Of a stretch of DNA of 64,000 nucleotides, positions 51,470 through 64,000 are shown piece by piece; position 1 is the stretch's first letter; each line of letters opens with the position of its first letter. This DNA is from Escherichia coli. Lineage in GTDB: Bacteria; Pseudomonadota; Gammaproteobacteria; Enterobacterales; Enterobacteriaceae. The stretch is from NCBI RefSeq assembly GCF_044647545.1, contig NZ_CP172818.1. One strand, given 5' to 3'. The translations under genes and the position numbers were made by a program. Below the pieces are notes generated by a model that made no database searches, was not told the origin of the DNA, and saw only the letters and a list, made by a program, of their open reading frames with translations.

Positions 51470-52435
51470 ATGAGAACCGTTAAGGTATTTGAGGAGGCCT
51501 GGCCCTTACATACCCCGTTTGTGATTGCCCGGGGAAGTCGCAGTGAAGCGCGCGTGGTGGTGGTTGAACTGGAAGAAGATGGCGTCAAAGGTACGGGCGA
51601 ATGTACGCCTTATCCGCGCTATGGCGAAAGTGATGCCTCGGTAATGGCGCAAATTATGAGCGTCGTGCCGCAATTAGAGAAAGGGCTGACACGGGAGGAG
51701 TTGCAAAAAATCCTCCCTGCCGGCGCAGCACGTAATGCGCTGGATTGTGCATTGTGGGATCTGGCGGCGCGAAAACAGCAGCAATCGCTGGCTGATTTGA
51801 TCGGCATAACGCTTCCCGAGACAGTCACCACGGCACAGACGATAGTCATCGGTACGCCTGATCAGATGGCCAATAGTGCATCAACACTCTGGCAGGCAGG
51901 CGCGAAATTACTGAAAGTGAAGCTGGATAACCATCTTATCAGTGAGCGGATGGTGGCAATTCGCACAGCTGTGCCCGATGCGACGCTGATCGTTGATGCA
52001 AATGAATCCTGGCGTGCAGAAGGGTTGGCGGCGCGTTGCCAGCTATTGGCAGATTTAGGCGTTGCGATGCTTGAACAACCGCTTTCTGCGCAGGACGATG
52101 CGGCGCTGGAGAATTTTATTCATCCGTTACCGATTTGTGCTGATGAAAGTTGTCATACTCGTAGCAATCTGAAGGCGCTGAAAGGGCGCTATGAGATGGT
52201 TAACATTAAGCTTGATAAAACCGGTGGTCTGACGGAAGCGCTGGCGCTGGCGACTGAAGCGCGTGCACAAGGTTTTCGTCTGATGCTGGGCTGCATGTTG
52301 TGTACCTCTCGGGCCATTAGCGCCGCTTTACCGCTGGTGCCGCAGGTCAGTTTCGCCGATCTTGACGGACCGACCTGGCTGGCGGTAGATGTGGAACCGG
52401 CGCTTCAGTTCACAACGGGCGAATTGCATCTTTAG
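51470..52435 (+). CDS. ycjG: L-Ala-D/L-Glu epimerase YcjG (enolase superfamily)
   Basis: ORF 51428..52435; start at internal ATG after AAGGAG (MRTVKVFEEAW...) giving 321 aa. Confidence 0.93.
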   Translation: MRTVKVFEEAWPLHTPFVIARGSRSEARVVVVELEEDGVKGTGECTPYPRYGESDASVMAQIMSVVPQLEKGLTREELQKILPAGAARNALDCALWDLAARKQQQSLADLIGITLPETVTTAQTIVIGTPDQMANSASTLWQAGAKLLKVKLDNHLISERMVAIRTAVPDATLIVDANESWRAEGLAARCQLLADLGVAMLEQPLSAQDDAALENFIHPLPICADESCHTRSNLKALKGRYEMVNIKLDKTGGLTEALALATEARAQGFRLMLGCMLCTSRAISAALPLVPQVSFADLDGPTWLAVDVEPALQFTTGELHL

Positions 52436-53138
52436 GATGCCAGCGCAGCAAGTTTGCCATCGCAAAGAGATATTTTTCGCTGGCTTCGTCGGAGGAGATG
52501 GGCGGAAACTCTGCGGTGATGCAATGCAGGTTGAGATCCGCACACCAACTGCCGAAAGAGCCAGGCGTTTCATAACCGACGCTGGTTACCAGTGGCAATT
52601 CAAACGCCTGGGCCAGCCATTCACCTAATTCGCTGTGTCTGGGGTCTTCAATACAGGCCAGTGGATCGTGGAATGAGACCACCCAGGCAGGTTGAATGCG
52701 GTGTATAAGCTGGCACAGCGCCTGAGTTTCAGGTTCGGAGCCAGGTTTGTCACCTGTCAGTAAAACGACATCACGTTCTTCAGCGGTGCTGTTCCAGCGA
52801 TAAACTGTTTCACCTTCCTTCCAGTTCGCTGCCGGAAAGTTTCGGTTTAAATCCACACCATTAGCATTGGCCCGTAACCCTAACTGGCAGCCGTCAGGAT
52901 TCACACACAGCACCACATGATGGCGGCGCAAAGACGGTGTCAAAGTCCGCAGAGCACAGGAGAGCGTGACGATCGAAGAGTTTTCATCACCGTGAGTGCC
53001 AGCCAGAATCAAACCACTTTCGTGACTGGCGGCTGGGGCCGGAAACCAGATCAAAGGCGCGCCCAATAATGAACGTCCGTAATGTTCTGTACCGGGCGGA
53101 AATGCGCCGCGTTCGGCGCGTGGGCGAGTTACGGTCAT
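52410..53138 (-). CDS. mpaA: Murein peptide amidase A MpaA (zinc carboxypeptidase family)
   Basis: ORF 52410..53198; start at MTVTRPRAERGAF...; 242 aa; 3' end overlaps ycjG by 26 nt. Confidence 0.9.
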   Translation of the reverse strand: MTVTRPRAERGAFPPGTEHYGRSLLGAPLIWFPAPAASHESGLILAGTHGDENSSIVTLSCALRTLTPSLRRHHVVLCVNPDGCQLGLRANANGVDLNRNFPAANWKEGETVYRWNSTAEERDVVLLTGDKPGSEPETQALCQLIHRIQPAWVVSFHDPLACIEDPRHSELGEWLAQAFELPLVTSVGYETPGSFGSWCADLNLHCITAEFPPISSDEASEKYLFAMANLLRWHPKDAIRPL

Positions 53139-53318
53139 GATCGTCTCTGGTTCAGGAAGTATTACAGGCAGTGTTGTGCAAATTTTGCGGATTATCAAAT
53201 CCTTTTCTTCAACGCTATGTTATCGATCTTTTCACTTTTTTGCCGGAAGTTGTTTGCATTTCTTTAAGGCGAAACAAATAATTACGCATCAATTTTAATG
53301 TCGGTTAGAGGGAAACTT

Positions 53319-54932
53319 ATGAAGCACTCTGTTTCAGTCACGTGTTGTGCGCTGTTGGTCAGCAGCATTTCTCTTTCGTATGCTGCTGAAGTTCCGAGCG
53401 GCACAGTACTGGCAGAGAAGCAGGAGCTGGTGCGCCACATTAAAGATGAGCCTGCGTCGCTGGATCCCGCTAAAGCCGTGGGCCTGCCAGAGATTCAGGT
53501 CATTCGCGATCTGTTTGAAGGACTGGTGAATCAGAACGAGAAAGGGGAGATTGTCCCCGGCGTTGCGACTCAGTGGAAAAGTAATGACAACCGTATCTGG
53601 ACATTTACCCTGCGCGATAACGCAAAATGGGCGGATGGCACTCCGGTAACGGCGCAAGATTTTGTCTACAGCTGGCAACGTCTGGTGGACCCAAAAACAT
53701 TGTCGCCATTTGCATGGTTTGCCGCGCTGGCGGGAATCAACAACGCACAGGCGATTATTGATGGTAAAGCCACGCCTGACCAGCTTGGCGTCACCGCAGT
53801 TGATGCCCATACTTTGAAAATCCAGCTTGATAAACCGTTGCCGTGGTTTGTGAATTTAACCGCTAACTTTGCCTTCTTCCCGGTGCAAAAAGCCAACGTA
53901 GAAAGCAGTAAAGAGTGGACGAAACCCGGAAATCTGATCGGCAATGGCGCTTATGTTCTTAAAGAGCGCGTAGTCAATGAAAAACTGGTCGTAGTGCCGA
54001 ATACCCATTATTGGGATAACGCCAAAACGGTACTGCAAAAAGTGACCTTCCTGCCAATTAATCAGGAATCCGCAGCCACTAAGCGTTACCTCGCGGGGGA
54101 TATTGATATCACTGAATCCTTCCCGAAAAATATGTATCAGAAGCTGTTGAAGGATATTCCGGGGCAGGTTTATACGCCGCCGCAGCTCGGGACCTATTAT
54201 TATGCGTTTAACACGCAAAAAGGGCCGACGGCAGATCAGCGCGTTCGCCTGGCATTAAGTATGACGATAGATCGCCGCCTGATGACCGAAAAAGTATTAG
54301 GGACGGGCGAAAAGCCAGCGTGGCATTTTACACCAGATGTTACCGCGGGATTTACGCCGGAACCTTCGCCGTTTGAACAAATGAGTCAGGAAGAACTGAA
54401 TGCGCAGGCAAAAACTTTGTTGAGCGCAGCTGGTTATGGTCCGCAAAAACCGCTGAAGCTGACGCTTTTGTATAACACTTCAGAAAACCATCAAAAAATT
54501 GCGATTGCTGTAGCATCAATGTGGAAAAAGAACCTTGGCGTAGATGTTAAATTGCAAAATCAGGAATGGAAAACCTATATCGATAGCCGTAACACCGGCA
54601 ATTTTGATGTTATCCGCGCCTCGTGGGTAGGGGATTATAATGAACCCTCCACTTTCCTGACATTATTAACGTCAACGCATTCCGGGAATATTTCACGCTT
54701 TAACAATCCGGCATATGACAAAGTTCTGGCCCAGGCATCGACGGAAAATACCGTTAAAGCGCGTAATGCCGATTACAACGCGGCAGAAAAAATCCTCATG
54801 GAGCAAGCACCGATTGCACCAATTTATCAATATACCAATGGACGATTAATCAAGCCGTGGCTGAAAGGTTATCCCATTAATAACCCTGAAGATGTGGCGT
54901 ACAGTCGGACTATGTATATTGTGAAGCATTGA
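53319..54932 (+). CDS. mppA: Periplasmic murein tripeptide-binding protein MppA
   Basis: ORF 53298..54932; start at internal ATG after GAGGG (MKHSVSVTCCALLVSS...) giving 537 aa; signal peptide. Confidence 0.95.
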   Translation: MKHSVSVTCCALLVSSISLSYAAEVPSGTVLAEKQELVRHIKDEPASLDPAKAVGLPEIQVIRDLFEGLVNQNEKGEIVPGVATQWKSNDNRIWTFTLRDNAKWADGTPVTAQDFVYSWQRLVDPKTLSPFAWFAALAGINNAQAIIDGKATPDQLGVTAVDAHTLKIQLDKPLPWFVNLTANFAFFPVQKANVESSKEWTKPGNLIGNGAYVLKERVVNEKLVVVPNTHYWDNAKTVLQKVTFLPINQESAATKRYLAGDIDITESFPKNMYQKLLKDIPGQVYTPPQLGTYYYAFNTQKGPTADQRVRLALSMTIDRRLMTEKVLGTGEKPAWHFTPDVTAGFTPEPSPFEQMSQEELNAQAKTLLSAAGYGPQKPLKLTLLYNTSENHQKIAIAVASMWKKNLGVDVKLQNQEWKTYIDSRNTGNFDVIRASWVGDYNEPSTFLTLLTSTHSGNISRFNNPAYDKVLAQASTENTVKARNADYNAAEKILMEQAPIAPIYQYTNGRLIKPWLKGYPINNPEDVAYSRTMYIVKH

Positions 54933-56014: not shown

Positions 56015-56253
56015 TGTTTTATCAGGCTCCTCCAGATAATTGTCGTCATGCCGGAAACCCCTGGCGGGACTATTTTACCGCGACAATTCATTCAGATCAT
56101 CAATAGTCAGGGAAGGAAGTAGCAACTCTAACTAATCAATACGTTGATTGTAAATCCAGCTAAGAGGTGAGGTTTTCAGAGCAGACAACGGTGAAATGTC
56201 ATGGTATTGTTACGTTTAGGTAACAAGAAATTTGTCTGCACAAGGATTACATC

Positions 56254-63629: not shown

Positions 63630-64000
63630 ATGGCTTTTCAGGTAAAAATTCATCAAATTCGGGCTTTTGTTGAAGTGGCTCGTCAGGGCAGCATTCGCGG
63701 AGCGAGCCGAATGTTGAATATGTCGCAACCGGCACTGAGTAAATCTATTCAGGAACTGGAAGAAGGGTTGGCGGCACAACTCTTTTTTCGCCGTAGTAAA
63801 GGCGTGACGTTAACTGATGCCGGTGAAAGTTTTTATCAGCACGCCAGTCTTATTCTTGAAGAGCTGCGCGCAGCGCAAGAGGATATTCGCCAACGACAAG
63901 GGCAACTGGCAGGGCAAATTAATATCGGCATGGGGGCCAGTATTTCCCGCAGTCTGATGCCAGCTGTCATATCTCGTTTTCATCAGCAGCATCCGCAGGT
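63630..64000 (+). CDS. abgR: LysR-family regulator AbgR, N-terminal part (3' end lies outside the window)
   Basis: Open frame from ATG 63630 (MAFQVKIHQIRAFVEVARQGSIRGASRMLNMSQPALSKSIQELEE...) runs to the window end; LysR HTH; divergent from abgA. Confidence 0.88.
   Translation, partial: MAFQVKIHQIRAFVEVARQGSIRGASRMLNMSQPALSKSIQELEEGLAAQLFFRRSKGVTLTDAGESFYQHASLILEELRAAQEDIRQRQGQLAGQINIGMGASISRSLMPAVISRFHQQHPQ

Follow-up and report, generated by a model that had tools for sequence, protein, structure and literature searches.

The genes mppA, mpaA and ycjG form a cluster for the catabolism of murein tripeptide in gamma-proteobacteria, and its amidase MpaA is the subject of work by Uehara and Park (2003) and Maqbool et al. 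(2012), both as cited in PMC6448482. In Escherichia coli K-12, ycjG and mpaA constitute a convergent pair that was classified as an "excludon" in an analysis of K-12 RNA-seq data (PMC12288877). In addition, mpaA is the last gene of the ycjY-ymjD-ymjC-mpaA operon, which lies next to the divergently oriented gene pgrR and is recorded as a target of PgrR in the regulon of Shimada et al. (2013), as tabulated in PMC5934670. A sequence-only reading of the E. coli DNA analyzed here, a stretch of 64 kb that we refer to as the window, noted that mpaA and mppA are separated by only about 180 bp. It held that several genes, among them pgrR, lie between them in K-12 and that PgrR controls the operon ending in mpaA, in which case the window genome would carry mpaA without its K-12 regulator and upstream operon partners. 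The entry in PMC5934670 agrees with this role of PgrR. Below, the segment that separates mpaA from mppA in K-12 is called the cassette, and a locus in which the two genes are contiguous is called an empty site. The genes of the window locus and the spacer between them are as follows:

51470..52435, plus strand: ycjG, L-Ala-D/L-Glu epimerase (NCBIfam NF011708, 673 bits; 97.8% to K-12 YcjG by tblastn)
52410..53138, minus strand: mpaA, murein tripeptide amidase, intact, 242 aa, ATG at 53138
53139..53318, no strand: mpaA-mppA spacer, a 180-bp divergent intergenic control region in the single-copy empty-site form, without the cassette
53319..54932, plus strand: mppA, murein tripeptide periplasmic binding protein, intact, 537 aa, with OppA-family matches

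Thus, the window contains the same three intact genes in the same orientation as the described murein tripeptide cluster, and the pair formed by mpaA and mppA has ycjG, tpx, tyrR and ynaI as its neighbours. MpaA matches the NCBIfam equivalog NF007897 with 478 bits (cutoff 157) over residues 1-236 of 237, which corresponds to its full length. The mppA gene, which gives a 100% self-match in tblastn and has 98-99% nucleotide identity to K-12, is preceded by a ribosome-binding site, GAGGG, at 53308-53312. The names of both genes are those given in the RefSeq annotation of 99.9%-identical genomes that carry the same DNA. The third member of this catabolic cluster, ycjG, is convergent with mpaA, and the 3' ends of the two genes overlap by 26 bp (52410-52435).

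The K-12 locus resembles that of the window in its flanking genes, and it also contains both halves of the window spacer, the 90 bp next to mpaA and the 90 bp next to mppA. Between these halves, MG1655 has four annotated genes, ymjC, ymjD, ycjY and pgrR, in agreement with the sequence-only reading, and K-12 carries 2446 bp between mpaA and mppA beyond the length found in the window. The adjoining pgrR gene is absent from the window, as are ycjY and the SDR gene (ymjC/ymjD) upstream of mpaA. No homologue of pgrR, ycjY, the SDR gene or the second hydrolase gene was detected by tblastn anywhere in the 64-kb window, the sole LysR match being a paralogue at 63645-63998 that is 28% identical to PgrR. 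Hence, unlike its K-12 counterpart, mpaA of the window is subject neither to read-through from the ycjY promoter nor to PgrR repression at that promoter. Another difference between the two genomes is found further along the window, where ynaI and ynaJ adjoin each other (56015-56253); in MG1655 they are separated by IS5F, a K-12-specific insertion.

Although the regulator and operon partners are indeed missing, the view that the window genome is the odd one out, having lost its proper context, turned out to be the reverse of what comparison with other species indicates. We scanned the family using one genome per species and MpaA as the query, which yielded 80 loci, in 74 of which both genes could be placed. 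In 70 of these 74 species-level loci mpaA and mppA are divergent neighbours, separated by a spacer of 138-233 bp (mode 184). They include E. albertii, E. whittamii and three other non-coli Escherichia lineages, as well as members of the genera Citrobacter, Enterobacter, Raoultella, Kluyvera, Kosakonia, Leclercia and Lelliottia. The spacers of the other Escherichia are 182 bp long and colinear base for base with that of the window, those of the other genera are 183-192 bp, and the window spacer is colinear with those of 70 other enterobacterial species, with conserved blocks common to all. The window falls into this group, with an intact MpaA, a divergent mppA at 180 bp and all the conserved blocks in the same order (53168-53284). 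On the evidence of gene order and spacer alignment, this near-universal adjacency shows that the contiguous mpaA-mppA pair is ancestral at the family level, and that the K-12 arrangement is derived from it by insertion.

The window shows no structural difference from the murein tripeptide cluster of these relatives. Its only peculiarity is a private net loss of 2 bp (TTGTA to TTT, at about 53229-53231, just 5' of a conserved TCAC block), by which its spacer measures 180 bp instead of the 182 bp found in all the related genomes listed; none of the complete E. coli genomes has a 100% match to the window junction. This loss may reflect a genuine micro-indel or an error in sequencing. As to the wider surroundings of the pair, ynaI and mppA are about 3.2 kb apart in four non-coli Escherichia lineages (loci L007, L008, L010 and L014), compared with about 50 bp in E. 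coli and E. albertii.

The cassette itself has relatives outside E. coli. Orthologues of PgrR with 87-89% identity have a scattered distribution among Klebsiella, Raoultella, Kluyvera, Citrobacter, Enterobacter and Salmonella. In every contig examined, the pgrR orthologue lies divergently beside an operon of five genes, which encode an old-yellow-enzyme (OYE)-type reductase, an adh_short dehydrogenase, an SDR of the NmrA type and two alpha/beta hydrolases. Around this six-gene module the DNA varies with the context, which in one case is a conjugative element. The E. coli cassette shares 79% DNA identity with the module over 3.6 kb, from just past the start of adh_short to the stop codon of pgrR, and the Pfam assignments of the cassette genes agree with this identity. 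These data show that the K-12 cassette is a truncated foreign module that was acquired horizontally. The LysR-regulated oxidoreductase/hydrolase module of Klebsiella and Raoultella represents the source type of the cassette, which differs from it in lacking the OYE and adh_short genes, whereas the window lacks the module altogether. At only 79%, the best DNA match falls short of an exact donor. The cassette is without evident link to cell-wall peptide metabolism, and it is by landing in the spacer that its operon came to point into mpaA.

Three states of decay of the cassette can be distinguished. The fullest, found in O157 and PS10-3, contains the SDR gene, a hydrolase gene, ycjY and pgrR, with 3991 bp between the starts of the repeats that flank it (see below). 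The second, found in B2-like strains, contains the SDR gene, ycjY and pgrR, with 3111 bp between repeat starts. In the third, the K-12 form, the SDR gene has suffered a deletion of 660 bp, which begins exactly where the left repeat ends. This deletion, which is present in K-12 and ARL09/232 and involves about 4 bp of microhomology (L001 5724-5730 versus L003 1835-2496), creates ymjC/ymjD, and Escherichia sp. E1V33 has the same 660-bp-deleted form of the SDR gene. In the stretch of about 240 bp between the pgrR stop codon and the right repeat, RefSeq annotates a short internal fragment of queH, encoding epoxyqueuosine reductase (L003 5641-5715, L092 4860-4952 and L095 5739-5813). The Klebsiella/Raoultella module has no homologous counterpart of this stretch, which may have been left over from the DNA that surrounded the cassette in its donor. 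We also considered insertion as a mobile element. This possibility was rejected, because the annotations comprise only the SDR, hydrolase and pgrR genes and the queH fragment, with no transposase or integrase, and there is no inverted repeat at the ends. The flanking duplication of 34 bp is longer than typical target duplications. An observation of another kind concerns the B2-like, cassette-bearing E. coli FDAARGOS_1293, in which mpaA contains an internal stop codon and has the annotation of a pseudogene (L004 977-1705).

The sequence-only reading had proposed to look for direct repeats at the junction, and such a repeat does bracket the K-12 segment. When the window is compared with K-12 by BLAST, the two alignments that meet at the junction overlap by about 30 bp, and in K-12 an imperfect direct repeat (L001 5688-5729 and 8134-8175) flanks the segment missing from the window. 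A 17-bp exact repeat core within 2.9 kb is far beyond chance. Comparison with the fuller inserts in O157:H7, B2-like and other strains shows that the duplicated unit is 34 bp long, TGTATCACTTTTTTGCCGGAAGTTGTTTGCATTT. This 34-bp segment is present on both sides of the insert in all the cassette-bearing genomes examined, and once in the window:

53230..53261, no strand: single repeat copy, segment TGTATCACTTTTTTGCCGGAAGTTGTTTGCATTT, 32 bp here and 34 bp in relatives, the private 2-bp net loss being located at its 5' end

The two copies can be told apart, because the right copy has the diagnostic differences TGTGTCAC or TTTGTCAC and reads GAT where the left copy reads GCC. The two longest stretches over which the copies are identical measure 11 and 12 bp. 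Crossing over within the former would leave a GAT scar, and within the latter it would generate exactly the sequence of the window. The copy in the window is of the GCC type; its diagnostic positions are the same as those of the left copy and of the outgroups, which represent the state before insertion, and it contains no chimeric bases.

In E. coli, the contiguous mpaA-mppA arrangement of the window is present in 196 of 5426 complete genomes; the cassette was found in 5244 and is wholly absent from 182, so that most of the empty-site genomes lack it altogether. For the source genome of the window, the absence of pgrR is shown within the 64 kb and otherwise through these counts. The genomes with an empty site include the ST648 group, which is 99.9% identical to the window, and the strains CE10 and IAI39, which we take to be reference strains of phylogroup F. 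The empty site is therefore a minority allele within E. coli that is typical of phylogroup F, and the window belongs to this minority. In this sense, it is an ordinary case of presence/absence variation of an accessory cassette. A different kind of cassette loss was observed in E. coli NH-21, in which a copy of IS1 takes the place of the cassette and only the last ~150 bp before the right repeat are left (L005 4288-4985); this is an independent, non-precise loss.

How did the lineage of the window come to be empty? The reading we prefer, to which we assign a probability of roughly 0.6, is that the cassette was lost by precise excision between the 34-bp repeats. The starting point is the entry into the spacer of a truncated foreign module, with genes for a reductase of the NmrA type and for one or two alpha/beta hydrolases and with the divergent pgrR, which was accompanied by a duplication of 34 bp of the target. 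According to this scenario, an ancestor of phylogroup F would later have lost the cassette when the two 34-bp repeats recombined or slippage took place between them, and a crossover inside GGAAGTTGTTTG would have restored the ancestral structure exactly. From then on, mpaA of the window would have been free of PgrR-controlled read-through and dependent on its ancestral promoter.

Several lines of evidence bear on this scenario. First, the locus has the features of a direct-repeat deletion system: relatives have a segment of 2.4-4.0 kb between 34-bp imperfect repeats, and the window has one copy left. Second, repeat-mediated excision has been shown to occur in other lineages. Strains SCU-172 and LP5-1 have a chimeric single copy in which the left-type TGTATCAC is joined to the right-type GAT, and this chimeric GAT junction is carried by 14 empty-site genomes, which shows the process at this very locus; moreover, LP5-1 nests among cassette-bearing alleles in the trees of both flanks with 91-95% bootstrap support. 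Third, the cassettes of the major E. coli groups diverge by 1.4-1.8%, compared with 0.9-2.8% for the flanks. A cassette as diverged as its flanks suggests that it has been present in E. coli for about as long as the species has been diversifying. Fourth, whichever flank is used for the neighbour-joining tree, the empty alleles of the F type are placed beside the B2-like cassette-bearing alleles, and not at a basal position or with the divergent empty lineages. Phylogroup F is presumably the sister of B2/G. The copy in the window differs from the chimeric excision alleles in having no diagnostic chimerism; it is in this lineage that we infer excision rather than retention of the original state.

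The possibility that phylogroup F never had the cassette has to be weighed against this scenario. The spacer of the window would then be an unbroken pre-insertion allele, and the cassette would have reached the other phylogroups partly by homologous recombination via the conserved flanks. We regard this explanation as rather unlikely. It agrees with the GCC type of the window copy, which equals that of the outgroups, and with the absence of a chimeric signature, except that about half of all repeat-mediated excisions would leave the same unscarred product, given longest identical runs of 11 and 12 bp. It also agrees with the diversity of the empty alleles in phylogroup F, which are 96.6-99.5% identical over 381 bp, with private changes inside the segment in CE10, as fits an old allele. 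Likewise, other basal-looking E. coli-like lineages (E200086/MFDS1019527 and Escherichia sp. MOD1-EC7003) are empty too. Finally, transfer of the cassette between lineages is documented in Escherichia sp. E1V33 (L008 6373-9001), a non-coli Escherichia, which has a K-12-type cassette that is only 2.3% diverged from that of E. coli between flanks that are 10-14% diverged, and in which the right repeat switches to native sequence, indicating that the cassette was imported by homologous recombination. Such spread weakens the argument from parsimony for a single ancient gain. On the other hand, the divergence of the cassette between phylogroups matches that of the flanks, as expected if it was present in the common ancestor of E. 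coli, and the flanks of phylogroup F are sister to those of B2-like cassette-bearing alleles instead of being basal.

It is also conceivable, but in our judgement very improbable, that the ancestor of phylogroup F had the cassette and then imported an empty allele from another lineage by homologous recombination. Recombination across lineages has taken place at this locus, as seen in E1V33, and the trees of the left and right flanks differ in detail. However, the flanks of the window are 98.2-98.5% (left) and 98.7-99.0% (right) identical to B2-like and K-12 alleles, which is typical of E. coli sensu stricto, and the same is true of its mppA-proximal spacer, whereas they are only 94.6-97.2% (left) and 95.6-96.8% (right) identical to those of the divergent empty lineages; no imported tract is visible in the comparison of flanks and spacer. 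An artefact, in which the assembly of the source genome collapsed across the 34-bp repeats, was rejected as having next to no chance of being correct. An assembler might conceivably be misled by repeats, and the 2-bp difference might be a sequencing error, but the same junction recurs in other species and in 196 genomes that were finished independently of one another, IAI39 and CE10 among them, and no read is as short as 34 bp.

Alignment of 71 spacers revealed five conserved blocks, GCAGTGTTGTGCAAA, ATCAAAT..TTT, TCAC, TTTGCATT and GAAACAAATAATTA. In the window, the elements that we relate to transcription of the two genes are as follows:

53168..53182, minus strand: block GCAGTGTTGTGCAAA, the most conserved in the spacer, with at least 85-95% column conservation in 71 spacers
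53175 to 53170, minus strand: predicted mpaA -10-like hexamer AACACT within GCAGTGTTGTGCAAA, a putative assignment
53193..53205, minus strand: block TATCAAATCCTTT, with ATCAAAT; its minus-strand TTGATA (53198 to 53193) is the predicted -35
53253..53282, plus strand: predicted sigma-70 promoter of mppA, TTTGCA-18-AATAAT or TTGCAT-17-AATAAT, the sole promoter obtained from the scan
53253-53261 and 53271-53284: mppA-side blocks TTTGCATT and GAAACAAATAATTA, respectively, which hold both mppA hexamers

The sequence-only reading argued that mpaA must use a promoter of its own in this spacer. This part of the argument fits the presence of the -35- and -10-like blocks: TTGATA is located exactly 17 bp upstream of AACACT, ungapped and without length variation in any species of the 71 spacers. 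The predicted -10 agrees with the consensus at three of six positions and was not called by the consensus scan, and we infer that TTGATA-17-AACACT may be a weak, probably activator-dependent promoter. Judging from this conservation, transcription of mpaA in the window probably starts from a conserved promoter that belongs to this gene. Such a promoter would not be new to the window genome, because K-12 keeps the mpaA-proximal half of the spacer beside mpaA. The retention of this sequence suggests that mpaA of K-12 probably keeps its predicted promoter too, with PgrR-controlled read-through added to it. In this respect, the extent of the duplication is relevant: the 34 bp cover the stretch between the two predicted promoter cores plus the predicted -35 of mppA, which falls inside the duplicated segment, so that the insertion left each of the two genes with a complete upstream region.

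No convincing match to CRP-like or other known regulator sites was found by eye in the conserved blocks, and no regulator was assigned to them; a scan of 52800-53600 against Rfam with E values up to 1 gave no RNA family. A terminator-like site that the consensus scan placed inside the signal-peptide coding region of mppA was considered to be due to chance. The ycjY/pgrR spacer is included in a list of RpoD constitutive promoters, and mppA and mpaA are not.

Other insertions have been observed at this locus. Salmonella enterica subsp. arizonae and diarizonae have a different insert, of about 3.2-3.4 kb, in the mpaA-mppA spacer. One of these inserts (L027 5848-9000) contains three ORFs with the Pfam matches CDtoxinA, Exo_endo_phos and CDtoxinA, and looks like cdtA-cdtB-cdtC; in the Salmonella insert loci the mppA-proximal promoter blocks are replaced. 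In E. coli MFDS1019527 (L090 4282-8347), which has an empty site, a prophage whose first gene encodes a tyrosine integrase truncates mppA, of which only about the first 66 bp precede it.

It is tempting to speculate, though we consider it doubtful, that the spacer is a preferred landing site for foreign DNA, that the 34-bp duplication was selected for keeping a shared operator and both promoters, and that the role of PgrR in "peptidoglycan recycling" is purely a by-product of the place where a foreign detoxification-type module landed. Two sets of data are consistent with this idea: the same spacer has received independent inserts (the E. coli cassette, and cdtABC in Salmonella arizonae/diarizonae), and both conserved promoter halves are preserved after the insertion. 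If it were true, strains of phylogroup F would be natural pgrR/ycjY nulls that show how the native pathway is regulated.

There is nothing surprising in kind at the mpaA-mppA locus, and its modest interest lies in the regulation of mpaA in K-12, where control by PgrR looks like a side effect of the insertion of the cassette, an accident of its landing place that is missing in phylogroup F. The locus offers a clean natural case in which one small cassette was gained, decayed step by step, was excised precisely and spread by recombination, and it may serve as a lineage marker. The comparison also corrects a K-12-centred view, in that the textbook ycjY-ymjD-ymjC-mpaA operon under PgrR is a lineage-specific add-on, brought about by the horizontally acquired cassette, and not the native regulatory design of murein tripeptide catabolism. 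Pathogens of phylogroup F (ST648, and the IAI39/CE10 type) run this pathway without PgrR, and the regulon annotations of K-12 are therefore not transferable to them.
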